From: a virus
Strand: one strand, 5' to 3'
Virus genome (UHGV): UHGV-0188933
DNA: 18,246 nucleotides
The notes below the pieces were generated by a model. The model ran no database searches. It saw nothing but the letters and a program-made list of their open reading frames with translations, and was not told where the DNA came from. This document shows, piece after piece, positions 3,413-15,533 of this stretch (position 1 is its first letter; each line of letters opens with the position of its first letter). The position numbers and the translations under genes were made by a program.

Positions 3413-3603
3413 ACGCCACAATTCAAACGATACCAGAGCTTCTTATCCAGACACGAGGCAATCAGACCGAAGTGGCAAGGATGCTTTCCTGCGCAAGAGG
3501 AACAGTGCTTAAGTACAACCGAGACAGCAAAGGCGAGCGTCACGTAATAGTTAACGGCGTCCTGATGGTCAAACAGGGCAAGAGGGGAAGACGATGGGCA
3601 TAA
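3409..3603 (+). CDS. ninH: NinH-like protein
   Basis: 64 aa; TIPELLIQTRGNQTEVARMLSCARGTVLKYNRDSKGERHVIVNGVLMV resembles lambda NinH (TIPDMLVEAYGNQTEVARRLKCSRGTVRKY). Position between rusA and Q is as in lambdoid nin regions. Confidence 0.75.
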   Translation: MNATIQTIPELLIQTRGNQTEVARMLSCARGTVLKYNRDSKGERHVIVNGVLMVKQGKRGRRWA

Positions 3604-4082
3604 GAGAACTAAACCTCACCAAAGAGCAGCACGAGTGGCTGAATGGCTGGCTTGAACTGTGGGGGGCATGGGTTTATTCAGGTCGTCTTGAAAAGCGCAT
3701 GAGCAGCGTAATAGCGAAGTTCATGGAGAGCGTAGAGCCGGGAAGAGTTATGACAAGGCCAATGTGCAATGATGATGATGGAATGTTGATTTCTCAGGTC
3801 GTCGATTCCGTCATGTACATTGACAAGAAAGCCTTTGGCATCCTCCTCAGCTACTACGCCCATGGATCTTCCAAGCACGCCATTGCATCTTACTATCATC
3901 GCGTCGCAAGACCTCGCAAGATGTTATGCCGGGGCGGAGGGCGCATTCAAAAACCATCGCTCGCAACCTGTCGTCGGGAAGTTGACGAAATCCTCAATGC
4001 CTCGTTGTTTATGATTTACCCGGTTCTGGATAGTGCGTTTAAAAACCGGAAACGTGTAGAGAAAATTAAACATGTAGCATAG
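3594..4082 (+). CDS. late-gene antiterminator, Q-like
   Basis: 162-aa Cys-containing protein in the Q position (after ninH, before the lysis cassette). Call rests on synteny and size more than on recognised motifs. Confidence 0.55.
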   Translation: MGIRELNLTKEQHEWLNGWLELWGAWVYSGRLEKRMSSVIAKFMESVEPGRVMTRPMCNDDDGMLISQVVDSVMYIDKKAFGILLSYYAHGSSKHAIASYYHRVARPRKMLCRGGGRIQKPSLATCRREVDEILNASLFMIYPVLDSAFKNRKRVEKIKHVA

Positions 4083-4126
4083 AACGTGTTGACATCATTG
4101 AGCAAATGAGCAACACTATTCGCATA

Positions 4127-4168
4127 AGCTGCCGTTAGTGACTCTTAAGTTGCAACGGTGGCTTTTTT
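4127..4168 (+). terminator. hairpin plus T-run downstream of Q (possible short late-leader terminator)
   Basis: 10-bp stem (agctgccgtt / aacggtggct, two G-U pairs) with 17-nt loop, followed by TTTTTTATTT. A TTGACA hexamer lies at 4089-4094. Confidence 0.4.
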
Positions 4169-4172
4169 ATTT

Positions 4173-4247
4173 GGGTCAGTCGTATAAAGGTCATTACGGA
4201 AGGCTGTTAACCTTCTTATCGTGGTTCGAGTCCACGCTATCCCGCCA
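4173..4247 (+). tRNA. tRNA-Asn-like element (anticodon GUU), possibly degenerate
   Basis: Perfect T-arm cgtgg-TTCGAGT-ccacg, perfect anticodon arm gaagg-CTGTTAA-ccttc (U33, anticodon GTT, A37), U8, A14, GG in D-loop, 3' CCA at 4245-4247. Acceptor stem has two mismatches (gggtcag vs ctatccc) and D-stem one. Confidence 0.45.
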
Positions 4248-4283
4248 AACATGCTGGTTTAGCTCCAATGGTAGAGGTGGTAA

Positions 4284-4709
4284 ATGCCGAGCAAAGATTA
4301 CTATCTTAATCGAAGGGCTAGGCTTGCTAAGACCGTGGAAAAGTTGGGTGGTCGTTGCGCGAGTTGCGGATCCGAATATTCGCTTCAGTTTGACCACATA
4401 GACCCTTCCACCAAATCAGCAAATGTAAGCGAGATGCACTATCACTCAGATTAGGTGTTTTATGCTGAGGTTGAAAAGTGCCAACTACTATGTTCTGCAT
4501 GCCACATTCAGAAAACCAAATTTGACCTTAGCTACTTAGTAGCTGGTGAGCTGAATGGTATGAGCAAGCTAACAATGGACAGCGTCCAGTTCATCAGAGA
4601 AAACTACATTCCACGACATAAGGTTTATGGAGCCAGAGGGCTAGGGAGAATGTTTGGTGTAACACATCAAACAGTGCTTTCAGCCTTAAATGGCGAAAGC
4701 TGGAAATAA
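4284..4709 (+). pseudogene. HNH endonuclease interrupted by in-frame TAG at 4452-4454
   Basis: Frame from ATG 4284 reads ...CASCGSEYSLQFDHIDPSTKSANVSEMHYHSD*VFYAEVEKCQLLCSACHIQKT...; the C-x2-C, DH, N and C-x2-CH elements of one HNH motif are split by the stop. Good SD (gaggtgg) upstream. Confidence 0.7.
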
Positions 4710-5126
4710 GCTGCGCGTCAGAGGTTCGATTCCTTTGCCCGCTCCAGTAAAAGCTTTCCAGTCTGCGATGATGGGTTCCCCGGAGTGACTGGAAAGCGAC
4801 CTGGTTTTGAATGGGCGCTGCTTTTTGCAAAATTGCTGTGTGAAAATACTGACCTTTGGGTTCAGCGCTCATCCAAAAGCATCACGTGAATTCACCAACG
4901 CTCATGTACTCTCCAGGAAACAATAAGTGATTCTGAAAAGTTCCGGTTAGATATTGCCCCGGTCACCGGATGATTTTATCTTTTGGTTCGTGGTGAATCC
5001 CCCTATGCGGCGGGGCGTCCAGTCAAACTTTTTTGTCCAGGTTTGTTTGCGCGGAACTAGTCGGCTGGGGCTGTTCCACCGGGAGGCACCCGGCGCCACC
5101 TCCTTGACGGTATTGTTATTTTTCAT

Positions 5127-5153
5127 GCCTGTTCGTCCGAGCAGGCTTTTTTT
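5127..5153 (+). terminator. intrinsic terminator about 410 bp upstream of holin (tR'-like)
   Basis: 8-bp stem (gcctgttc / gagcaggc with one G-U), 4-nt loop, then TTTTTTT. Confidence 0.6.
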
Positions 5154-5563
5154 GCCCGCATTATCTTCATTGAAAACTGGCAACTCAGAGAATCATCCAA
5201 ATTAAAAAAGCAGCAACGAGAGCGATTACTAATACATTCTTCGCTTTTTCTCTTCTGCTGGCCTTCACAAAAGGATTCACTATCCGGCAGTGGCTACACA
5301 CAAGTGATTCTGGGTTAATTAACTTTCCGCAGTAGGGGCAGGGCTTGATAATCATTGGTACTAATTAAGTTGTGAGAACGTAGTCTCATTTAACCACATT
5401 TATCGAGTTGTTTTACTAATGGTCTAGTTATTTCAGACATATTCATCAATTTCAGGCTCACGGGAATCATCCGCTACGTGCTTTGTTGATAAATCCAGCC
5501 CGTGAAGCCTGACCCTTTTCAAACACACACACAGCACCATCCGGAAAATCGGAGGTGAGGCCT

Positions 5564-5887
5564 ATGAAAATGCCATACAAACAAGATTTCATCGCTGCGC
5601 TACTTGCCGCCAAGGAGCAGGGTATTGGTGCAATGCTGGCTTTTATCATGGCGTATCTGCGTGGTCGCTATAACGGCGGCGCGGTAACAAAAACGCTAAT
5701 TGATGCGCTGATGTGCGCGATGATTGCCTGGTTCGTTCGTGACCTTCTGGACTTTATCGGCCTGAGCAGCAACCTCGCCTACATAGCCAGCGTCTTTATT
5801 GGATACATCGGCACCGATTCGATCGGCAATCTTATTAAAAAACTTGCAGCAAAAAAGGCGGGAGTTGACGATGCAAACCAGTCCTGA
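5564..5887 (+). CDS. S: class I holin, lambda S family, with dual-start motif
   Basis: [64 protein letters not shown]... is close to lambda S ([39 protein letters not shown]...). ATG-AAA-ATG with SD ggagg upstream. An in-frame GTG at 5555 gives the longer ORF in the track. Confidence 0.9.
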
Positions 5888-6320
5888 CGGAATTGCTCTG
5901 ATAAAAAAATTTGAAGGTTGTCGGCTGACTGCTTACCCCGACCCCGGAACGGGAGATGCGCCGTGGACCATCGGCTATGGCTGGACCCATCCGGTTGACG
6001 GAAAGCCAGTAAAGCGCGGTATGACTATCGACCAGCAAACCGCTGACAGGCTTCTGAAAACAGGGCTTGTTGGTTATGAGAATGACGTGCTGAAAGTTGT
6101 CAGGGTGAAGCTGACACAAGGCCAGTTCGACGCACTGGTGTCGTTCGCTTACAACGTTGGGTCGCGTGCTCTTTCCACATCTACACTGCTGAAAAAGCTG
6201 AATGCTGGCGATATAAAAGGCGCGGCAGATGAATTTCTGCGCTGGAATAAATCAGGCGGAAAGGTGATGCCGGGGCTCACGAATCGCCGCAAGGCAGAGC
6301 GAGCTCTGTTCCTGTCATGA
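5871..6320 (+). CDS. endolysin, T4-lysozyme-like (GH24) muramidase
   Basis: Protein from ATG 5871: [40 protein letters not shown]... with E-x8-D-x5-T catalytic spacing; ends [11 protein letters not shown] like P22 gp19-type lysozymes. Start overlaps holin end. Confidence 0.85.
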
Positions 6321-6784
6321 TTAGCGCACTGGTTAAGCGTTACTGGCTGCAGTTGCTGGTGCTGGCGTTAATCGGCGCACTGGCTTTCTTCGTGAACCAC
6401 TACCGCGACAACGCCATCACTTACAGAGACCAGCGCGATAAGGCCACTGAGAAACTCCTCCTGGCGACCGCCACCATTAAAGACATGCAGACCCGCCAGC
6501 GTGATGTCGCTGCACTGGATGCCAAATACACCGGAGAACTGGCTGATGCGAAAGAAACCATTGAGCGTCTGCATAGCGATGTCATTGCTGGCCGTAAGCG
6601 CCTGCAAGTCGCCGCCACCTGTGCAAAGTCAACGACCGGAGCCAGCAGCATGGGCGATGGAGAAAGCCCAAGACTTACAGCAGATGCTGAACTCAATTAT
6701 TACCGTCTACGAAGTGGAATCGACAAGATAACCGCGCAGGTTAACTACCTGCAGGAATACATCAGGACGCAATGCCTGAAATAA
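6317..6784 (+). CDS. Rz: i-spanin Rz
   Basis: 155 aa with N-terminal TM segment ([16 protein letters not shown]) and coiled-coil-like remainder, immediately after the endolysin (ATGA overlap). Confidence 0.8.
6546..6731 (+). CDS. Rz1: o-spanin Rz1 (lipoprotein) embedded in the +1 frame of Rz
   Basis: [33 protein letters not shown]...: signal peptide with lipobox VSAC and proline-rich mature part, wholly inside Rz. Confidence 0.75.
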
Positions 6785-6985: not shown

Positions 6986-7483
6986 ATGAAATCATTAACC
7001 CTCTTCAATCAACCAATTCGTATCGGTGAAGATGGCATGATCTGCCTCACTGATATGTGGAAAGCTAGTGGTAAAAGTGAATCTGAATCGCCTTACCACT
7101 ACCTGCGAAACAAGCAGACCAAAGAGTTCTTAGCCGAGCTGGAGAAAAACCACGAATCTGTGGTTTTTACTGAGCGCGGTGTACACGGTGGAACATATGG
7201 CGGGAAGTTTGTTGCTTACGATTATGCGGCTTGGTTAAACCCCGGGTTCAAGTACGCGGCCTATAAAGTCCTCGATGACTACTTCACCGGAGAACTTCAG
7301 CATCGCAACAGCTTAAGTGCGCAGCTCAACATGAAATGTCATGAGTTTGACCAGAAGAAAGACATGGCGAGCTTCTGCGGACAAGGGCTGGCAGCATGGC
7401 GCTATACGAAGCCAGTGTTGGTCGCTGAGATTAACTCCCTGGCTAACCAGCTGCAGATTACGATCCCCGGGCTTCCGGGATGA
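6986..7483 (+). CDS. KilA-N domain protein
   Basis: MICLTDMWKASGKSE...KEFLAELEKN...GVHGGTYGGKFVAYDYAAWLNPGFKYAAY matches the KilA-N pattern (TDxWKA, GGT, YAxWLxPxF). Confidence 0.7.
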   Translation: MKSLTLFNQPIRIGEDGMICLTDMWKASGKSESESPYHYLRNKQTKEFLAELEKNHESVVFTERGVHGGTYGGKFVAYDYAAWLNPGFKYAAYKVLDDYFTGELQHRNSLSAQLNMKCHEFDQKKDMASFCGQGLAAWRYTKPVLVAEINSLANQLQITIPGLPG

Positions 7484-7737
7484 GTGATCGTGTCATTGAA
7501 TGCGCCTCCAGAGCGGGGCGCGACTTCTCAGAGTTCATGAAAGGCGAGAAGGGCATGAGGGAAGCATTGGCCTCGGTGGATGAGTTTGGCGAGCAGCTGC
7601 GCCTCAACGGCTGTGTCAATCATCACTTTGTTAGCTACATGATGCGGAACTCGATCATGCAGGCATTCATGGACATGGCAAAAGCCGAGAGGAAAGAAGA
7701 GCGCCGGCGTAAGCGAGCGGAAGCAAAAGCGAAGTAG
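7480..7737 (+). CDS. hypothetical protein with basic Lys/Arg/Glu-rich C-terminal tail
   Basis: 85-aa ORF, ATGA-coupled to the KilA-N gene; no recognised domain. Confidence 0.4.
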   Translation: MSDRVIECASRAGRDFSEFMKGEKGMREALASVDEFGEQLRLNGCVNHHFVSYMMRNSIMQAFMDMAKAERKEERRRKRAEAKAK

Positions 7738-8089
7738 CCATTACAAAGCCCATCTACGGGTGGGCTTGATAATGAAACCGTGATTTACATCCCCACAATC
7801 CGGGTATGTAAAAGATAGTTCAGGCGAGAACAGATTTAACTAAATCTGTGCACCACCAGTTACGGCAGTACCACGAAGCAACCCAAGCCAGTAAGTGGGG
7901 AAATAACACTGGCAGCCACTGAAAGATGAACCTCCAGCCTTATGGCAAAAAAGATTCTTTGTGGTGGCGGGCTGATGGAAAGACATCGGTTATTGCAGAG
8001 GCCATTCAATGAGTGGTCTCGACAATGGCTTATACCCTGCACGGGATAACTTAACTGATATCCCTTTTAACGGATAAACGGAGCCAACA

Positions 8090-8245
8090 ATGGCAAAGCT
8101 CACCGACAAACAAGAGCTGTTTGCCCGTGAGTACCTGAAAGATTTAAACGCCACACAGGCAGCTATCAGGGCGGGTTGGGCAAAAGCTCAACAACATGCC
8201 GTATTACCGCGCGAAACAATACGCGCAGATGCTTGGCATCGATGA
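8090..8245 (+). pseudogene. terminase small subunit, N-terminal stub (51 codons)
   Basis: MAKLTDKQELFAREYLKDLNATQAAIRAGW... is the conserved N-terminal helix-turn-helix of Terminase_2-type small subunits; frame ends at 8243-8245 after diverging. SD ggag 8 nt upstream. Confidence 0.7.
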
Positions 8246-9833
8246 AAACACGCTGATGGCGATGCGGCGCGGCATGAATGGCTTTACCGCCGATTACCAG
8301 TCGATGCTGCAAAAGACAGGGTTCAACGCTGATAAAGCGGCTGTTCAGTCCAACAAATTCATGACGTCCATGCGCGGGCTTACGTCGCTGTTCGGCATCA
8401 TGCGGGACAAGATCGGCTCAAACCTCGCTGGTGGCCTGGCTGGTTCGCTGGACAGCCTGCGGCGGCGCATCCTCGACAATTTCCCGAAGATTGAAGAGAC
8501 GCTGACCAGAGTTATTAAAGGCGTGATCTGGCTTGCGAACGCATTCACGAGAATGGCGTGGCGGCTGATACAGGGCGCTGGCTCTGTCATCGACTGGTGG
8601 AAGCGTCTTGACGATGGCAGTAAAAATCTGCTGAAAATATTCGGTGCTCTACTGGTCGCATGGCGTCTGCTTAATTCTGCGTTCCTGAAATCCCCGATTG
8701 GAATTATCACCACACTGATTCTGGCGATCGGATTGCTGTACGACGATTACCAGACGTGGAAAGAGGGCGGTAAAAGCCTGATTGACTGGTCCAAATGGCA
8801 GCCAGAAATTGAGCAGGCAAAGAAGGTGTTCAAGTGGCTGCGCGATAAGTTTCTGGAGCTCAAGGACAACCTCGGCGGCTGGAAAAATACGCTCACCATC
8901 CTGTTTGGCTTTCTGGCTGGTGCGAAGCTGGTCTCCATGCTCACTGGCATCGGGCGACTTGTCGCCGGATTTATGGGGCTTGGTAAGGCAATTGGCGGCT
9001 CTATTGGTGGGCTGGGTAAGCTGGCGCAGGGGATCGCACAGCTGGCAATCAAGAATCCATGGTTGCTTATGTTCATTCCTGCCAACAATACGCCGACCAC
9101 CAGTGAAGAAATGGCGTCGATTGGCGGTATAGGCAGCAATATCGTACCTGAAAGGCAGCAGGCATATGAGGCGCTGAGAAAGGAAAATCCCGGCAAAGAC
9201 TTTTTCACTGATGAGCAAATCCAGCGAAAAATTCAGGAGATGGGACTGGAGCCGGAGCAGCGAGCGCAGTCGGTTAAGCGACCTCAGGCGACGGCCCAGG
9301 GCAAGGTATTGCTCGACTGGATGGGGCCAATGTTCAATAAACTGGAGTCGCTTTATCAGCTGCCAGCTGGCCTGTTGAAAAGCGTGGCGATCACCGAGTC
9401 GGGTGGTAACCAGTTCGCCATATCCGGCGCAGGCGCGAAAGGACTGTTTCAGTTTATGGATGGCACGGCGCGCGACATGGGCCTGCGTGGGAATGATGTA
9501 TTCGACCCGGAAAAGTCAGCTCAGGCAGCCGCTAAGTACCTCAGCCAGCTGTTGCGGCAGAACGGCGGAGACCTTAGCAAAGCACTGGCATCATATAACT
9601 GGGGGATCGGGAATGTTAAGCGTTATGGAATGGGGCTAATGCCGCAGGAAACGCGCAACTACATTCCGAAAGTGATGAGCAATATGCCCACCAGCGCCCC
9701 GGTGATTCAGCAGGAAACGAACATTAACATCCACGGCGTTTCCGATCCGCGCGAGGCTGCCCGTTTGACTGTTGACCGTCAAAAGGGCGTGAATTCACAG
9801 TTAACCCAGCAACTCCCCGCAGGACCGAGATAA
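8196..9833 (+). CDS. tail tape measure protein, C-terminal portion, with lytic transglycosylase (SLT) domain; N-terminal part absent
   Basis: Typical TMP low-complexity Gly/Ala/Leu segments (LAGGLAGSLDSL, GKAIGGSIGGLGKLAQGIAQ). C-terminal ITESGGNQFAISGAGAKGLFQFMDGTARDMGL...ASYNWG is an SLT signature. Frame opens only at 8148, just inside the terS stub. Confidence 0.75.
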   Translation: MPYYRAKQYAQMLGIDENTLMAMRRGMNGFTADYQSMLQKTGFNADKAAVQSNKFMTSMRGLTSLFGIMRDKIGSNLAGGLAGSLDSLRRRILDNFPKIEETLTRVIKGVIWLANAFTRMAWRLIQGAGSVIDWWKRLDDGSKNLLKIFGALLVAWRLLNSAFLKSPIGIITTLILAIGLLYDDYQTWKEGGKSLIDWSKWQPEIEQAKKVFKWLRDKFLELKDNLGGWKNTLTILFGFLAGAKLVSMLTGIGRLVAGFMGLGKAIGGSIGGLGKLAQGIAQLAIKNPWLLMFIPANNTPTTSEEMASIGGIGSNIVPERQQAYEALRKENPGKDFFTDEQIQRKIQEMGLEPEQRAQSVKRPQATAQGKVLLDWMGPMFNKLESLYQLPAGLLKSVAITESGGNQFAISGAGAKGLFQFMDGTARDMGLRGNDVFDPEKSAQAAAKYLSQLLRQNGGDLSKALASYNWGIGNVKRYGMGLMPQETRNYIPKVMSNMPTSAPVIQQETNINIHGVSDPREAARLTVDRQKGVNSQLTQQLPAGPR

Positions 9834-10435
9834 TGGATATTTTATCAGCGATTTTTCGCCAGCAATCCCGGCGAATTGGCCTGCTGATCCCCAGCGTGGT
9901 CGTTTCCGAAAAGCATTCTGATGCGCTCGAAATTACTGAGCACCCGGTGGAGAAGCCAACAACGAATAGCGCGTCGGGTTTCATCGCCGATCATGCGTAT
10001 AAGCGCCCCAGCGAAGTCACGATGGAATGCGGCTTCGCAGGTGGCGGTTCGTTGCTGGACTTCATTGATACATCGTCAATCGGCCTCAGCGCCGGACTTA
10101 GCCCGAAAGAGACCTATCAGCAACTACTGGATCTCCAGTCCTCTCGGGTGCCGTTCGATGTAGTGACCGGAAAGCGGGTTTACAGCAATATGCTGGTGCG
10201 AGCCATCGAGGTGACAACGGATAAAACCAGCGAGAACGTGCTGAACTGCACGCTTACCCTGCGTGAAGTGATCATGTCGCAGACGCAGAGCGTTAGCGTT
10301 GCAGATAAATCAGATATGCAGGATGGCGTCAGCACATCGGCGGTGCAGAATTCCGGGATGAAATCCACTACACCGCCAAACGAATCCTTGCTGAGCCAGC
10401 TGGGCGGAAGCGTTACATCAGCATTCGGGGGATGA
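9833..10435 (+). CDS. tail/baseplate assembly protein (family uncertain)
   Basis: 200-aa ORF translationally coupled to the TMP stop; position between TMP and hub. Confidence 0.4.
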   Translation: MDILSAIFRQQSRRIGLLIPSVVVSEKHSDALEITEHPVEKPTTNSASGFIADHAYKRPSEVTMECGFAGGGSLLDFIDTSSIGLSAGLSPKETYQQLLDLQSSRVPFDVVTGKRVYSNMLVRAIEVTTDKTSENVLNCTLTLREVIMSQTQSVSVADKSDMQDGVSTSAVQNSGMKSTTPPNESLLSQLGGSVTSAFGG

Positions 10436-10436
10436 T

Positions 10437-10742
10437 ATGCAGTTTAACGAAATACCGCTTTCTCCTGACAATCAGCAGTTCCGCGTTTTGCTGGGCAATA
10501 CCACGTATACACTCAGGATCATCTGACGTGATGCGGCTGGCTGGATTATGGACGTGATGGATAGCGGCGGTGCCGCGCTTCTCTCTGGCGTACCTCTACT
10601 GACCGGCGTAAACCTTTTACGACAATATCCACAGCTTGGCATTGATGGCGCGCTGGTGGTGGCGACCGATAAGGGCGCACCAGACGAGCCCACCAAAACC
10701 AACCTCGGCACATACAGCCACCTCATTTTCGTACAGGAGTAG
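10437..10742 (+). pseudogene. small tail protein interrupted by in-frame TGA at 10524-10526
   Basis: Single frame reads MQFNEIPLSPDNQQFRVLLGNTTYTLRII*RDAAGWIMDVMDSGGAALLSGVPLLTGVNLL...VQE, verified codon by codon; the TGA would be Trp with one G-to-A change. Confidence 0.5.
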
Positions 10743-10744
10743 AA

Positions 10745-11812
10745 ATGTCTCTTAACTGGATGCGCCATTTTGAGCTGCAACTGTTGGACCAGAACGGGCA
10801 GGGCGTTTCCCTGTCTGACTTTAAGGTCACGTTCCAGATCGAGTGGGCAGACACACGCTGGCCACGCGTGGCGAACGTGAAAATTTACAACCTTTCGACC
10901 GATACCACGAACAAGATACTGGGGCAGGAGTTTGCAAAAATTCGCATCATTGCCGGGTATGACGGTATTGCGCCGGATGTTGATGCGAGCCAGGTTGGTG
11001 TCGCCCGGGAGATTTCACCAGACCAGGTAGGGCAGGTGAACGGTCAGAACTACGGCCTGATATTTGACGGTGATATTCGCTTCACCGTCACCGGGAAGGA
11101 CAACATCACCGATTCCTGGGTGCTGATTCAGGCCATCAGTAACCACGAAGCGTTCCTCTACGCGACTACCATCACCACGCTTGCCGCTGGTTATACCGTT
11201 GCGGACCTGCACCGGGCGACTATGCAGGATTTCAACGCGTTCGGCGTGACGCAGGGCATTACCGGTGACTTTCCTGATACCGTGTTTCCTCGTGGCCGTG
11301 CGATTTATTCATCCACCCGTAACGTGATGGATAATATTGCTGCGCAGTGCAAAGCGACATGGCAGCTGGTGGATGGTCAGGTCCAGATGGTGCCGGAGGA
11401 TAAATATATTCACGAAGCCATTGTGTTGAATGCCGATACTGGCCTGATCGGTATGCCGCAACAAACGATGGGCGGCGGAGTAAACGTGCGGTGCCTGATA
11501 AACCCAAACATCCGTATTAATGGTCTTATCCAGCTCGATCAGGCTTCGGTGTACCGCGCCGCGCTCGGTAATAGCGAAATAGCACAGTCGCCCGGTCGCA
11601 TCACCGAAACAGAAGAGAACGGCAACCGCGTACTGACCGGCACAACGTCACAGGCTGCCAGCATTGCGACAGATGGCGTTTATATCGTCAAAGCTATCGA
11701 TTATACTGGTGACACCAGAGGTCAGGCGTGGTACATGGATTTGATGTGTTTTGCGCGTGGGGCTCGTGACCTGATTAGCCAGTCGACTATAGCTCGCTCA
11801 GGAGGAAATTAA
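10745..11812 (+). CDS. baseplate hub-like tail protein (Mu gp44 / P2 gpD position)
   Basis: 355-aa ORF immediately upstream of the spike/gp46/gpJ/gp48 module; assignment by synteny and size. Confidence 0.4.
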   Translation: MSLNWMRHFELQLLDQNGQGVSLSDFKVTFQIEWADTRWPRVANVKIYNLSTDTTNKILGQEFAKIRIIAGYDGIAPDVDASQVGVAREISPDQVGQVNGQNYGLIFDGDIRFTVTGKDNITDSWVLIQAISNHEAFLYATTITTLAAGYTVADLHRATMQDFNAFGVTQGITGDFPDTVFPRGRAIYSSTRNVMDNIAAQCKATWQLVDGQVQMVPEDKYIHEAIVLNADTGLIGMPQQTMGGGVNVRCLINPNIRINGLIQLDQASVYRAALGNSEIAQSPGRITETEENGNRVLTGTTSQAASIATDGVYIVKAIDYTGDTRGQAWYMDLMCFARGARDLISQSTIARSGGN

Positions 11813-12703
11813 GTGGGTACAAATAAGAACGGAATTCGATATAGCGCACTTTTTCTTTCCGGGTTGCTCTTATCCGGGGGCGCGAGTGCAGGCTTTAATT
11901 CCGCGCAGAACGCTGAGTACAAAAGACGTCCAGGATGGCAGCCGATAGTAATTTTATCGACAGATGATTGTCAGACATGGAAATCTAAAGGGAAGTCACT
12001 AATTGACTGGAGTGGCGAGATCTGTGGTCCTGACGGGTTGATTAAGGCAATCAATAAAAAGCCGGAGAATATACCAGCTTTTTATGCTGCATATCATGAG
12101 TACGGCACAGGTGGAGTTAGGGCTATCGATGTAAGAGATAATTCTCAGCTAAATTATCTCAATTTTGTAAATGATTTAGCTAAGAAACTTTCTTCTTCGG
12201 CTGTTGTATTAAAGATTTATGATGATTATATCATTGATAGAAAACCCATGGGGCTTGCAGAGGTTTCACGAGAAAATTTTGTAAAACAGCTAAATGAGTT
12301 ATCGCTGAAGCAACCTGCCATCTATCAAAAAATGAACGACGTAGCCAAGGCTGATTACGAGAAAAGTAGTAATGTTCACAGTAACGAAAAGCTTGGCGTG
12401 AATTACAAAACAGTCTGTGGTCCTTATACGATTGATCTGTCTTCTGCTGATGGTTGGGCCAGAATTAATGGCGCAAAACCAGAGACGCAAAAAATTAGCC
12501 CAATCGGCTCTGGTGGTAGCACCAAAGGGGAACCGGATAACATCAAGATGGAGTGGATGGCTGCCACTAATCAACCCGGCCGCTGGGTTGGGCTTGAGTA
12601 CATCAAGCGCAACGGAAAAGCTATTCTCAACGCACAGTGGTTGCAGGCCAGCATAGACGCGCCGCGCCAGTATGCAACATACGACTGCCGAAAAGTAAAA
12701 TAG
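11813..12703 (+). CDS. cargo (moron) protein, 296 aa: signal-peptide-like N-terminus and a TMP-like motif; function unknown
   Basis: GTG start 7 nt after GGAGG. N-terminus MGTNKNGIRYSALFLSGLLLSGGASAG looks like a signal peptide. Residues DDCQTWKSKGKSLIDWS parallel DDYQTWKEGGKSLIDWS in the TMP. Remainder is visibly AT-rich relative to flanking tail genes. Confidence 0.55.
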   Translation: MGTNKNGIRYSALFLSGLLLSGGASAGFNSAQNAEYKRRPGWQPIVILSTDDCQTWKSKGKSLIDWSGEICGPDGLIKAINKKPENIPAFYAAYHEYGTGGVRAIDVRDNSQLNYLNFVNDLAKKLSSSAVVLKIYDDYIIDRKPMGLAEVSRENFVKQLNELSLKQPAIYQKMNDVAKADYEKSSNVHSNEKLGVNYKTVCGPYTIDLSSADGWARINGAKPETQKISPIGSGGSTKGEPDNIKMEWMAATNQPGRWVGLEYIKRNGKAILNAQWLQASIDAPRQYATYDCRKVK

Positions 12704-12721
12704 CCCGCCAGATAGGCGGGC
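12703..12721 (-). terminator. GC-rich hairpin between the convergent cargo genes (terminator for the minus-strand gene)
   Basis: gcccgcc-agata-ggcgggc, 7-bp stem; on the minus strand it is followed by a T-rich tract (ctattttacttttc). Confidence 0.55.
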
Positions 12722-12726
12722 ATGCG

Positions 12727-13017
12727 TCAAAAATATTGAGCTTTAATTATAATAAACACAATAATTACGAACAGGATGTTTCTAATTATTTTTTGCTTAT
12801 GAGTAAGTTGTTTTTTTTCTGTCGATTTCCCGGGAGAGTAAAGGTTAGTGGTATGCGACAGCCCCGTGCCGGGAAGGCCATTTGTCATCTTTACGCCTTT
12901 TTTCCCGATGTTAATGGTGGAACCTTTACCACCAATTGAAGTGCTTACTCCGCTTTTACTAATGTTGATCGCGAGTCCGGGCGCAATCCGGATTCTTTTA
13001 CGAAATCTAAATCCCAT
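12727..13017 (-). CDS. DUF4236-like small protein with C-terminal transmembrane helix
   Basis: MGFRFRKRIRIAPGLAINISKSGVSTSIGGKGSTINIGKKG...PGTGLS resembles what I recall of the DUF4236 N-terminal signature; C-terminus IIRNILFVIIVFIIIKAQYF is hydrophobic. AT-rich, convergent with the cargo gene. Confidence 0.55.
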   Translation of the reverse strand: MGFRFRKRIRIAPGLAINISKSGVSTSIGGKGSTINIGKKGVKMTNGLPGTGLSHTTNLYSPGKSTEKKQLTHKQKIIRNILFVIIVFIIIKAQYF

Positions 13018-13204
13018 TTGTTACTCCTGTAGTCAATAATGCGATGGTGCAGGTCCACTCTATGGCGGCTTCATGGCTGAAATTGATTTTCAATGCTTAC
13101 TTGTTGCAAACATATCCTAATACACATTGTGAATGTGTGCCATTGCAGCGGAAAAGCCTTACTTCACACTGATGTAGCTTAGTTACTAAGAGATAATTGA
13201 TACC

Positions 13205-13228
13205 AAACCAGCTTCGGCTGGTTTTTTT
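13205..13228 (+). terminator. strong intrinsic terminator 12 bp upstream of the spike gene start
   Basis: aaaccagc-ttcg-gctggttt, perfect 8-bp stem with tetraloop, then TTTT (7 T in a row counting the stem end). Confidence 0.7.
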
Positions 13229-13239
13229 ATGGGGGTTTT

Positions 13240-13980
13240 ATGCCAATTCCAACTCAATCACAGATCGGCGGTGAGCAGCAGACCGCGCAGGCCATTGCCG
13301 ATTCGGTGTCTACCCAGATGCGCGTAGCGATGCCCGGCATCATTCAGTCGTTCGATCCTGACACTGTTACCTGCACGGTAGAGGTAGCGCTTCGCGGTAT
13401 CGTTGGCGATGGCTCCACCGAATTAAAACCGCTGGTGGATGTGCCGGTTATCTTCCCGCGTGGCGGCGGTTGTACGCTGACTTTTCCGGTTAAAGAAGGC
13501 GACGAGTGCCTGCTGCTCTTTGCCGACCGTTGCATCGATTTCTGGTGGCAGAGCGGCGGCGTGCAGGAGACCGTCGACCCGCGCCAGCATGACTTATCTG
13601 ATGCGTTCGCCATCGTTGGCCCACAGTCGCAAGCACGGAAAATCAGCGGTATCAGTACCAGCGCCGCGCAGCTGCGAACCGATGATGGTGCGGCGTTTGT
13701 AGAAGTCGCCGCAGGACATAACATCACCATTAAAACACCGGGCCAGCTTACAGCTACGGCTGAAGGTGGAACGACAATCACATCCCCGACTATCACGCTG
13801 AACGGCAACGTAACGATTAATGGCAACTTGTCTCAGGGAATGGGCGAAAGCGGCGGTACTGCGACGATGCTTGGGCCGGTGACGGTAACGAATGACGTAA
13901 CAGCTTCTGGTATCAGTGTCGCCACGCATAAACATGGCGGAGTACAGACTGGCGGGGGAACTACCGGAGGGCCGCAATAA
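13240..13980 (+). CDS. baseplate spike / assembly protein V (Mu gp45, P2 gpV-like)
   Basis: N-terminal OB-fold-like region (GIIQSFDPDTVTCTVEV...PLVDVPVIFPRGGG...GDECLLLFADR) and Gly/Thr-rich beta-helical C-terminus (TITSPTITLNGNVTINGNL...). Confidence 0.8.
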   Translation: MPIPTQSQIGGEQQTAQAIADSVSTQMRVAMPGIIQSFDPDTVTCTVEVALRGIVGDGSTELKPLVDVPVIFPRGGGCTLTFPVKEGDECLLLFADRCIDFWWQSGGVQETVDPRQHDLSDAFAIVGPQSQARKISGISTSAAQLRTDDGAAFVEVAAGHNITIKTPGQLTATAEGGTTITSPTITLNGNVTINGNLSQGMGESGGTATMLGPVTVTNDVTASGISVATHKHGGVQTGGGTTGGPQ

Positions 13981-14333
13981 TGCGATACCGTCGCGAAGAT
14001 ACTGAAGGCGATTACACTTTCGGCCAGGGTGACGATACTTTCCTTATCGACAGTCCGGAATGTGTCGCCCAGGCCGTAAAAACCCGTTTCGAGCTGTGGC
14101 GCGGTCAGTGGTTTCTCGATCTGACGGAAGGCACGCCGTATGTTCAGTCAGTGCTTGGGAAGCAGCGATCAGATGTCTACATCCTGGCTATACGCGAACG
14201 CATACAGGATACACCGGGCGTTCTGTCGATTCTTTCCTTCGATACCAATTATGACGGCACCAGCCGTCGCGTCACCTTCACTTCCTCCATTGACACAATC
14301 TACGGCCAGACGACTGTAACAAGCGAGGCATAA
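13980..14333 (+). CDS. baseplate protein, Mu gp46 / gpW-like
   Basis: 117 aa, ATGA-coupled between spike and gpJ-like gene. Confidence 0.65.
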   Translation: MRYRREDTEGDYTFGQGDDTFLIDSPECVAQAVKTRFELWRGQWFLDLTEGTPYVQSVLGKQRSDVYILAIRERIQDTPGVLSILSFDTNYDGTSRRVTFTSSIDTIYGQTTVTSEA

Positions 14334-15533
14334 ATGGCTTTGAACCTCGACACGCTGGGGCTATCGGCAACGGTAACCGCCCAGGGGATTAGTGCGCCTG
14401 ATTACCAGACAATCCTAGATACACTGACCAGCTATTTCAGGCAGATTTACGGTAGTGATGCCTACCTCGAACCAGACAGCAAAGACGGGCAGATGGTCGC
14501 GCTGGTGGCTCTTGCCGTGCATGACGCTAACAACACCGCTATCGGGATCTACAACTCTTTTTCACCGACGACAGCGCAGGCCGCAGCGCTTAGCAGCAAT
14601 GTGAAAATTAACGGGATCACGCGAAAAGTAGCGACAAACTCTACTGCTGACCTTCTGTTAACCGGTACGGCAGGCACGACTATCACGAATGGCTCCGCAC
14701 GGGATAAAAACGGCATTATCTGGAATTTTCCCGCAAGTGTAGCGATCGGCGTTGATGGTACTGTGCTGGTGACGGCCACATGTGCGAATAGCGGTTCGGT
14801 TGCGGCGCTGGCCGGGACTATTACCACTATCAACACCCCGACCCGAGGTTGGGTGTCGGTAACCAATCCAGTTGCGGCTACTGTCGGTTCACCAGCCGAA
14901 ACCGACGCAGAGCTGCGCATTCGGCAGGGGCAAAGCGTCGCGCTACCATCGATCACACCGTTTGAAGGTGTCGACGGTGCTATCGCTAATGTTGCTGGCG
15001 TGACACGTCACAAACTATATAAGAACGATACTGGGGCAACCGACAGCAACGGGCTGCCGCCACACTCTATTTCCGCCATCGTCGATGGAGGGGATGTTAC
15101 CGAGATAGCCCAGACCATCAGGGGGAATAAAGGGCAGGGAACCGCAACTTACGGTAAAACTTCTGTCACAGTGCCGGATACTTATGGTAATCCTCACGTC
15201 ATCAGTTTTTCGCGCTCTACCGATGTGCCAATTTTCGTAGCCATTACCCTGAAAGTTTTTACCGGCTATACCTCTCAAATCGGCGAGCAGATTAAACAGG
15301 CTGTTGCCGATTATATAAATGGCCTAACAATTGGCGACGACGTTCTGCTGAGCCGTATTTATTCCCCGGCAAACCTCGGCGTTGTGAGCGGCGGGAATGC
15401 CCGCTATTACGATATTACCGACCTGCTGATCGGTAAGTCGTCTGGCAGCGTATCGGCATCAAACATTGATATTGCCTATGATGCTTCAGCGTCCTGTAGC
15501 ACCGCGAATATCAGTATCACGGTGACCTCATGA
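14334..15533 (+). CDS. baseplate J-like protein (Mu gp47 / P2 gpJ family)
   Basis: 399 aa; size and position between gp46-like and gp48-like genes. Confidence 0.7.
   Translation: MALNLDTLGLSATVTAQGISAPDYQTILDTLTSYFRQIYGSDAYLEPDSKDGQMVALVALAVHDANNTAIGIYNSFSPTTAQAAALSSNVKINGITRKVATNSTADLLLTGTAGTTITNGSARDKNGIIWNFPASVAIGVDGTVLVTATCANSGSVAALAGTITTINTPTRGWVSVTNPVAATVGSPAETDAELRIRQGQSVALPSITPFEGVDGAIANVAGVTRHKLYKNDTGATDSNGLPPHSISAIVDGGDVTEIAQTIRGNKGQGTATYGKTSVTVPDTYGNPHVISFSRSTDVPIFVAITLKVFTGYTSQIGEQIKQAVADYINGLTIGDDVLLSRIYSPANLGVVSGGNARYYDITDLLIGKSSGSVSASNIDIAYDASASCSTANISITVTS

Follow-up and report, generated by a model that had tools for sequence, protein, structure and literature searches.

A phage tRNA-Thr gene probably split by an HNH endonuclease cassette, and a structured tRNA-Gly trailer, in the late leader of a lambdoid prophage

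An HNH cassette between two parts of a tRNA-Thr gene

We analysed an 18,246-nucleotide (nt) stretch of DNA from the virus genome UHGV-0188933, referred to here as the window. It includes the late-operon leader of a lambdoid Escherichia coli prophage, which runs from Q through a phage-21-type pR′/tR′ region and a tRNA-Asn gene to the lysis genes. Within this leader, an open reading frame (ORF) for an HNH endonuclease is enclosed by pieces of tRNA genes and is followed by a segment that forms hairpins (Table 1). An earlier note on this DNA had pointed out a tRNA 3′-end-like fragment and an inverted repeat just after the HNH gene, and had proposed that they were either a relic attachment (att) core or simply the terminator of the HNH gene.

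Across the segment 4707-4741 (TAAGCTGCGCGTCAGAGGTTCGATTCCTTTGCCCG), 35/35 positions agree with the intact tRNA-Thr(UGU) genes found in E. coli prophages (e.g. MLI104K1) and Enterobacter phages, and 33/34 (97.1%) with the tRNA-Thr of Hafnia phage Meifeng. These intact genes are called by ARAGORN as well as by the depositors. A 35/35 match to intact tRNA-Thr genes is far beyond chance, and the fragment is a genuine tRNA 3′ remnant, as the note had supposed. The tRNA strings it quoted are in place (agagg 4720-4724, TTCGATT 4725-4731, ccttt 4732-4736, gcccgct 4737-4743 and cca 4744-4746), although the tRNA-derived tract starts further left than 4720, at 4707, where one TAA serves both as stop codon of the HNH ORF and in the anticodon loop (..CTTGTAA..). 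No complete tRNA was called at 4707-4746 by ARAGORN or by cmscan (RF00005). Since only tRNA-Asn is called in the region, the 3′ fragment is not a gene in its own right. To judge by its sequence, 4707-4741 is a remnant of the prophage's own tRNA-Thr gene and not of a host tRNA: the comparison with host tRNAs holds for the last 11 nt up to 4746, which equal the 3′ end of glyT-type tRNA-Gly, and fails for the remainder, which comes from phage tRNA-Thr.

Directly upstream of the HNH ORF, positions 4253-4276 equal nt 1-24 of the tRNA-Thr annotated in phage 21 and in Sf6. A tRNA-Thr(UGU) begins 5 nt after tRNA-Asn in phage 21, Sf6, SfI and about 90 further phage records. The window matches phage 21, Sf6 and SfI over Q, the phage-21-type pR′/tR′, tRNA-Asn and the first 24 nt of tRNA-Thr, and its megablast match to 93 phage records ends at 4276. 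The fragment had been described as having no matching 5′ half nearby. This is literally correct, because the stub belongs to a different tRNA-Thr allele and there is no pairing between its acceptor strand and the 3′ fragment, but a 24-nt tRNA-Thr 5′ stub does stand upstream of the HNH gene.

The nature of the insertion was revealed by comparison of filled and empty sites. Filled loci comprise 12 IMG/VR contigs (including L046 and L021) together with several Logan, NCBI and E. coli loci. They carry the 5′ stub, and the junction ..AGAG/GTGGTAAATG was found in all of them; a search with a 19-mer junction pattern gave 12 true loci in viral contigs and 9 chance matches among unrelated bacteria in genome contigs. 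The filled site reads GCCGGTCTAGTTCAGTGGCAGA, then 431 nt, then TAAGCTGCGCGTCAGAGGTTCGATTCCTTTGCCCGGCACC (shorter right flank TAAGCTGCGCG), with both halves of one and the same tRNA-Thr allele flanking the HNH ORF. In the empty site of E. coli MLI104K1 (L008), GCCGGTCTAGTTCAGTGGCAGA is followed by the 12 nt CCGGCAGCCTTG and then by TAAGCTGCG.. (right flank beginning TAAGCTGCGCG). Filled and empty flanks agree at 118/122 positions on the left and at 40/40 on the right. The 431-nt cassette therefore stands in place of 12 nt, with which the tRNA lost the last part of its D stem, the anticodon stem's 5′ strand and the bases that open the anticodon, and the fragment indeed marks the right-hand boundary of the HNH insertion. 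Intact tRNA-Thr alleles, for their part, share 4707-4741.

The cassette is composed of a 7-nt leader and 424 of the 426 nt of the ORF, whose last 2 nt lie within the shared TAA. The ORF is free-standing, outside any intron or intein, and part of its Shine-Dalgarno sequence is supplied by the GAG of the D arm. The junctions are identical in all copies, in the 12 IMG/VR contigs as in the other loci. Two 5′ stub alleles were found, the MLI104K1 type and the phage-21 type of the window. On the 3′ side there are at least three contexts: in one the tRNA keeps its own end and a terminator follows, in another it keeps that end and tRNA-Arg(UCU) follows, and in a third, that of the window, the tRNA-Gly tail stands with hairpins. 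The cassette, with 23-32 nt of shared flank, is thus found in two upstream and at least three downstream backgrounds, which fits co-conversion and equally ordinary recombination.

The right-hand tRNA piece is itself composite. After GCCCG the window reads CTCCA-gtaaaag.., where intact tRNA-Thr reads ..CCTTTGCCCG/GCACC and tRNA-Gly(UCC) ends ..CGCTGCCCG/CTCCA-gtttaag... This tRNA-Gly follows tRNA-Thr in the MS115-1, phi467 and vB_EcoS-689R5 prophages or phages, and shows 100% identity to a tRNA-Gly of the E. coli core, which 5421/5426 genomes carry. The crossover from Thr to Gly falls within the shared hexamer TGCCCG (4736-4741). On this alignment, the last 5 nt (CTCCA) and everything downstream derive from glyT-type tRNA-Gly, and the end that had been parsed as gcccgct-cca has to be read as TGCCCGC-T-CCA, the acceptor strand, U73 and CCA of tRNA-Gly(UCC). 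The same Thr/Gly fusion is present without HNH in E. coli OW1E2 (L004 1467-1540), where PGAP calls it tRNA-Thr and the acceptor strands are mismatched.

Other composites were seen. In phage HK639 (L003 2450-2524) a tRNA-Gly has its 5′ half replaced and receives no ARAGORN call. Salmonella phage Fels-1 (L011 1180-1940) carries a decayed tRNA remnant and the first trailer hairpin described below, then an insertion of about 570 nt with the ORF STM0906.1n, then the region of the second hairpin; here, a moron sits within the trailer element. Chimeric tRNAs are frequent in the lambdoid late-leader region, and some prophage 'tRNA-Thr' calls are Thr/Gly chimeras, a caution for annotation.

The HNH protein and its relatives

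Most HNH copies are intact and encode 141 aa; those of E. coli KL53 and L6-21 are annotated 'HNH endonuclease', and KL53 has the same arrangement as the window at 99.3% identity, annotated 'tRNA-Asn, HNH endonuclease'. Decayed copies also occur. In the window an in-frame TAG interrupts the ORF at 4452-4454, in place of the TCG codon (Ser57) of intact copies, and the ORF also carries A17T and T139S; one further copy has H38R (L035) and two are truncated after about 95 nt (L006 and L044). No suppressor tRNA was found in the window, and the window HNH gene is, as read from these changes, a pseudogene. Intact and decaying copies on mosaic backgrounds are as expected of a selfish nuclease gene, which does not by itself prove homing. 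A literature search for an HNH gene inserted in a lambdoid tRNA-Thr found nothing.

The protein scores 23.4 bits against Pfam HNH (cut-off 21.4) and matches PHROG HNH families down to 1.5e-21. D37-H38, C25, C28, C70 and H74 are invariant in 14 relatives (alignment A2). An AlphaFold2 (AF2) model, with a predicted local distance difference test score (pLDDT) of 87.9, consists of an N-terminal beta-beta-alpha unit and a C-terminal three-helix bundle.

tRNA genes adjoin or enclose 8/8 sampled relatives (37-58% identity), several of which have tRNA stubs on their flanks. These relatives come from unrelated phages (Streptomyces, large coliphages, metagenomic), and such a recurrent position, hard to explain otherwise, argues for a functional link to tRNA DNA. 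P0003 and P0004 (58% identity), which lie within large phage tRNA clusters, both stand after a tRNA stub of 25 nt (acceptor strand and D arm) and are followed, immediately after the stop codon, by an intact tRNA-Thr(UGU), downstream of which P0003 has tRNA-Tyr then tRNA-Gly(UCC), and P0004 tRNA-Gly(UCC) directly. P0047, P0014, P0005 and P0016 (39-45% identity) adjoin tRNA-Ser, tRNA-Lys (twice) and tRNA-Gln, some with tRNA-like remnants, and the relative in Streptomyces phage Mildred21 lies 17 nt after tRNA-Ser. In coliphage JohannJBalmer (L175 1201-1635), an annotated homing-endonuclease coding sequence related to the N-terminal part of the HNH protein overlaps the next tRNA-Lys by 21 nt.

We also observed that, of the two 58%-identical HNH loci in large phages, L012 (2965-3600) includes tRNA-Tyr and L018 (2965-3590) does not. 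The Thr-Tyr-Gly order of L012 is, we take it, that of the E. coli thrU-tyrU-glyT operon.

Because the cassette occurs in several stub and 3′ contexts and 8/8 relatives lie beside tRNA genes, the ORF is best read as a putative free-standing homing endonuclease of the kind represented by SegB of phage T4 and the F-Tfl enzymes of phage T5.

The trailer RNA and the surrounding leader

The inverted repeat is present as the earlier note had it (ctttccagtc 4754-4763 and gactggaaag 4787-4796), except that it measures 11 bp and not 10 (4753-4763 / 4787-4797). It lies within the trailer of tRNA-Gly, outside the HNH block. By our estimate, an 11-bp inverted repeat alone is expected about 0.3 times per 18 kb by chance. 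Its length alone is therefore insufficient, and the repeat is considered real because it is conserved and covarying.

Folding of this region, which had been suggested as a check, was performed with RNAalifold on 30 distinct variants (alignment A1) and gave two conserved hairpins covering about 130 nt (4753-4878). Over the 42 pairs, 98.7% of alignment cells are paired, compared to 36-50% in slid controls. Compensatory changes affect 8 pairs (0-3 in the controls), in the inverted repeat for instance from C-G to U-A and from U-A to C-G, and the covariation score is 0.215 compared to 0.04-0.085. Helices 1-2 contribute 17 pairs, 3 of them with compensatory changes and 99-100% of cells paired; helices 3-4 contribute 23 pairs, 5 with compensatory changes. 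The hairpin fold has a z-score of -2.5. G.U pairs are frequent; they would be mismatched if the opposite strand were read, and they point to a + strand RNA. One observation tempers the support from covariation: the compensatory changes fall mostly between two clades, so that few independent events underlie them.

The trailer starts 6-7 nt after CCA, beyond an AU-rich linker, with a stable hairpin. A loop-anchored pattern retrieved it in >119 viral contigs as 41 distinct variants. It follows tRNA-Gly in >100 phage contigs without HNH, e.g. HK639, phi467 and the MS115-1 prophage, and in many lambdoid and Shiga toxin (Stx) phages, and is kept even where the tRNA itself is destroyed. No Rfam family covers it in either of the two variants searched, that of the window and that of phi467; by this search it is none of the prophage sRNAs known nearby (STnc100, AgvB, AsxR and Esr41 among them). 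Identity with the small RNAs (sRNAs) PasA or PasD was likewise rejected, as PasA and PasD2 of E2348/69 gave no BLAST match to 4747-4881, PasC being outside this comparison.

Hairpin 1 resembles tRNA-Gly(UCC) from the anticodon arm to the T arm (AGCTTTCCAGTCTGCGATGATGGGTTCCCCG compared to AGCCTTCCAAGCTGATGATGCGGGTTCGATTCCCG). Shuffled sequences scored as well in 3/2000 cases for the window, 194/2000 for HK639 and 113/2000 for phi467. Hairpin 1 may thus be a decayed tandem tRNA-Gly copy turned hairpin, a reading that is suggestive in the window variant and weak in the others.

The E. coli 3′ external transcribed spacer of leuZ (3′ETS-leuZ) is an example of a tRNA 3′ spacer with a function of its own. 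PMC8550237 lists it as an sRNA in an enteropathogenic E. coli (EPEC) data set. The trailer is similar to it in starting 6-7 nt after a tRNA CCA and in being co-transcribed; it differs in having no sequence relation to 3′ETS-leuZ and in its absence from Rfam, and the likeness is one of position and co-transcription, not of Hfq binding or sponge activity. As to its role, the trailer is most likely a cis-acting processing or stability element at the junction of tRNA and late RNA; this is plausible, though a guess, which counts against leaning on it.

The remaining features of the leader complete the picture. In the left-flank comparison, position 4239 of tRNA-Asn is A, whereas phage 21, Sf6 and other copies have G. 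The change creates an extra C5.A68 mismatch in the acceptor stem, a further mark of decay. An sRNA of the STnc100 family lies between the trailer and the holin gene, and STnc100 is reportedly linked to PasD in a 2026 preprint. After the lysis genes, at 6986-15533, come a KilA-N protein and tail or baseplate genes (SLT-domain protein, Dit-like, baseplate J). Among the window ORFs scanned, neither terminase nor head genes were seen, an order unusual for a lambdoid late region. We considered a role of the HNH protein in packaging with a terminase partner and rejected it: within the window the lysis genes are followed by KilA-N and tail or baseplate genes and not by a terminase, the window copy is broken, and OW1E2 (99.8% identical over 4707-5200, with the same holin and lysozyme proteins) has no HNH.

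Table 1. Features of the late leader and adjoining genes in the window
Feature	Position	Strand	Basis
Phage_antitermQ (Q antiterminator)	ORF 3594-4082		
Phage-21-type late promoter pR′, Q-binding element, tR′ leader terminator	4089-4172	+	98.9% identical to phage 21; features transferred from phage 21 annotation
tRNA-Asn(GUU), intact, phage-borne	4173-4247	+	ARAGORN; Rfam tRNA 51 bits
tRNA-Thr(UGU) 5′ stub, phage-21/Sf6 type: acceptor 5′ strand, D arm, first 3 nt of D-stem 3′ strand	4253-4276	+	
Left end of cassette; forms with GAG of the stub the Shine-Dalgarno GAGGTGG of the HNH ORF	4277-4283	+	read from sequence
HNH endonuclease ORF, 141 codons	4284-4709	+	translations; Pfam; PHROG
tRNA-Thr(UGU) 3′ part: last 3 nt of anticodon loop, anticodon-stem 3′ strand, variable loop, T arm, start of acceptor 3′ strand	4707-4741	+	
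CTCCA: C72, U73 and CCA terminus of glyT-type tRNA-Gly(UCC)	4742-4746	+	
Trailer hairpin 1: 11-bp repeat, 2 more pairs, inner GGG/CCC stem cap	4753-4797	+	alignment A1
Trailer hairpin 2: outer helix 4805-4820 / 4863-4878, inner helix 4822-4829 / 4839-4846	4805-4878	+	
STnc100-family sRNA, between trailer and holin gene	4965-5157	+	Rfam RF02076, 71.7 bits (gathering score 47)
Intrinsic terminator of STnc100-family sRNA	5127-5146	+	terminator scan
Holin, lysozyme, Rz	5555-6784		

Origin of the arrangement and its meaning

Taken together, these results make it very probable that a phage tRNA-Thr was split by an HNH cassette and later fused from Thr to Gly, the inverted repeat belonging to the tRNA-Gly trailer RNA. 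The starting point would be a tRNA-Thr(UGU) gene in the lambdoid tRNA cluster between tR′ and the lysis genes, into which a free-standing HNH gene inserted, leaving the 24-nt 5′ stub on one side and the piece from anticodon loop to acceptor on the other. The nuclease would cut, at the insertion site or close to it, the intact tRNA-Thr alleles that co-resident phages or prophages carry, and repair from the HNH-bearing allele would copy the HNH gene with short flanks. The carrier would be immune because the insertion destroys the target, and the lost tRNA-Thr would be dispensable. Later, recombination at short tRNA homology would have exchanged the upstream part for the phage-21-type tRNA-Asn/tRNA-Thr stub, with the junction in AGAG, and a further event would have fused the acceptor 3′ end at TGCCCG to the end of a neighbouring glyT-type tRNA-Gly(UCC). 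The window HNH gene would then have decayed by the amber mutation at Ser57, and the trailer RNA would be transcribed as part of the late leader.

Three other explanations of the fragment, the insert and the repeat seem far less convincing. tRNA 3′ ends are common att sites, and the last 11 nt do equal the 3′ end of host glyT-type tRNA-Gly, so that the fragment could have been left by integrase-mediated insertion of an HNH-carrying element. However, the block neither contains nor adjoins an integrase gene, the insert being the 141-codon ORF plus 7 nt alone; the tRNA end has no direct repeat at the left boundary, where the complementary 5′ part of the same gene is found instead; and the gene is phage-borne and broken in the D/anticodon region, not in the T arm or at the acceptor end. 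The two flanks complement each other as halves of a single gene that has lost 12 nt, the anatomy of a nuclease-gene insertion and not of att recombination, and a relic att core, on a host tRNA or otherwise, has very little chance of being correct. Even more improbable, to the point of being negligible, is a self-splicing intron that holds the HNH ORF and still allows a functional tRNA-Thr to be made. Group I introns with homing endonucleases do occur in bacterial and phage tRNA genes (PMC3984707), and there too the nuclease ORF interrupts the anticodon region. Here, no intron family matched at E <= 10, and nearly the whole 431-nt insert is ORF, which leaves no room for a ribozyme. Moreover, 12 nt of exon are gone, including the first bases of the anticodon and the whole 5′ anticodon stem, and the two halves in the window come from different alleles with non-pairing acceptor strands; because these nucleotides are lost and the tRNA is not restored, the insertion is not phenotypically neutral. 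As for the repeat, it forms a stable hairpin 44 nt past the HNH stop codon, with the folding z-score given above and a run of five T 25 nt further on, as might suit a terminator of HNH transcription. That run (TTTTT, 4822-4826) exists as the earlier note said, yet it is base-paired as part of the 5′ strand of the conserved inner helix of hairpin 2 and is not a terminator tail. The hairpin 4753-4797 has a 23-nt loop and no U-tract abutting its stem and was not called by the terminator scan, whose sole plausible + strand call in the leader region is 5127-5146; the element follows tRNA-Gly in the HNH-less phages, and HNH copies in other 3′ contexts do without it. A terminator of the HNH gene is accordingly very unlikely.

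A more serious competitor is a passive one, in which HNH would have been acquired once as a moron by illegitimate, microhomology-mediated recombination and spread by homologous recombination between tRNA segments, the nuclease being uninvolved. Several observations favour it and weigh against active homing. All copies share the same junctions, so that a single insertion event followed by recombination is possible instead of repeated homing. The loss of 12 nt of the target means that the insertion is not clean, which is unusual for classic homing. Nuclease-free tRNA chimeras abound (the OW1E2 fusion, the half-replaced tRNA-Gly of HK639, the Fels-1 remnant), and the spread could equal ordinary homologous recombination at tRNA sequences, homing by the HNH protein being only predicted. 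In addition, the best Foldseek matches in the PDB, namely HNH nucleases (T5 SciA, Cap5 and ZRANB3 among them) and helix-turn-helix proteins, are all insignificant (E >= 0.27 for the solved HNH and helix-turn-helix structures), and a PDB sequence search with the HNH protein gave no match. On the other side, passive carriage does not account for 8/8 relatives in unrelated phages beside or inside tRNA genes, often with tRNA stubs, or for the intact ORF and catalytic residues kept by most copies. We therefore regard it as unlikely, and we somewhat favour active spread, in which the HNH protein would cleave intact alleles of tRNA-Thr and its gene would be copied in the course of repair.

The HNH gene would then join a known kind of system. 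T4 SegB is a free-standing GIY-YIG homing endonuclease in the T4 tRNA cluster that drives its own inheritance, and its 27-bp site contains the conserved tRNA T-psi-C motif (PMC2330249). The present gene resembles segB as a free-standing nuclease gene among phage tRNA genes that is present or absent between related phages, and SegB does target a tRNA gene sequence. It is unlike SegB in its family, in lying inside a tRNA gene, which it destroys, and not between tRNA genes, in residing in a temperate lambdoid prophage, and in that its activity is predicted. In phage T5, F-TflI and F-TflII, together with F-TflIV, are site-specific endonucleases encoded in the tRNA region (Akulenko et al. 2004, as cited in PMC2330249). 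The similarity again lies in nuclease ORFs within a phage tRNA cluster, the relatives P0003 and P0004 likewise being in large tRNA clusters; in contrast to the prophage studied here, T5 is virulent, and the comparison is one of gene location, not of sequence. We know of no T5 F-Tfl ORF reported to split a tRNA gene.

The gene thus probably encodes a free-standing homing endonuclease in a phage tRNA cluster and is unusual in lying inside a tRNA gene and destroying it, and the case is a neat but fairly ordinary one of mobile-nuclease traffic in phage tRNA clusters. A bolder joint proposal is that the trailer is a functional RNA family not described before (a 3′ external transcribed spacer of phages that would signal processing or stability of the late transcript, or would itself be an sRNA or sponge), and that the HNH lineage is a tRNA-gene-specific, intronless homing family which sacrifices its tRNA gene; we offer it tentatively and hold it to be rather doubtful.

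An orphan tRNA fragment can now be explained as a scar, one of the halves into which a selfish nuclease gene divided a phage tRNA-Thr. The association of homing endonucleases with tRNA clusters, known from virulent phages such as T4 and T5, is extended to lambdoid prophages, which are temperate, in E. coli and Enterobacter, and a candidate nuclease is gained that should recognise a conserved motif of tRNA genes. The analysis also brings to light, in the late leaders of Stx and lambdoid phages upstream of the lysis genes, a covariation-supported and apparently undescribed RNA structure, absent from Rfam, which may affect late expression.

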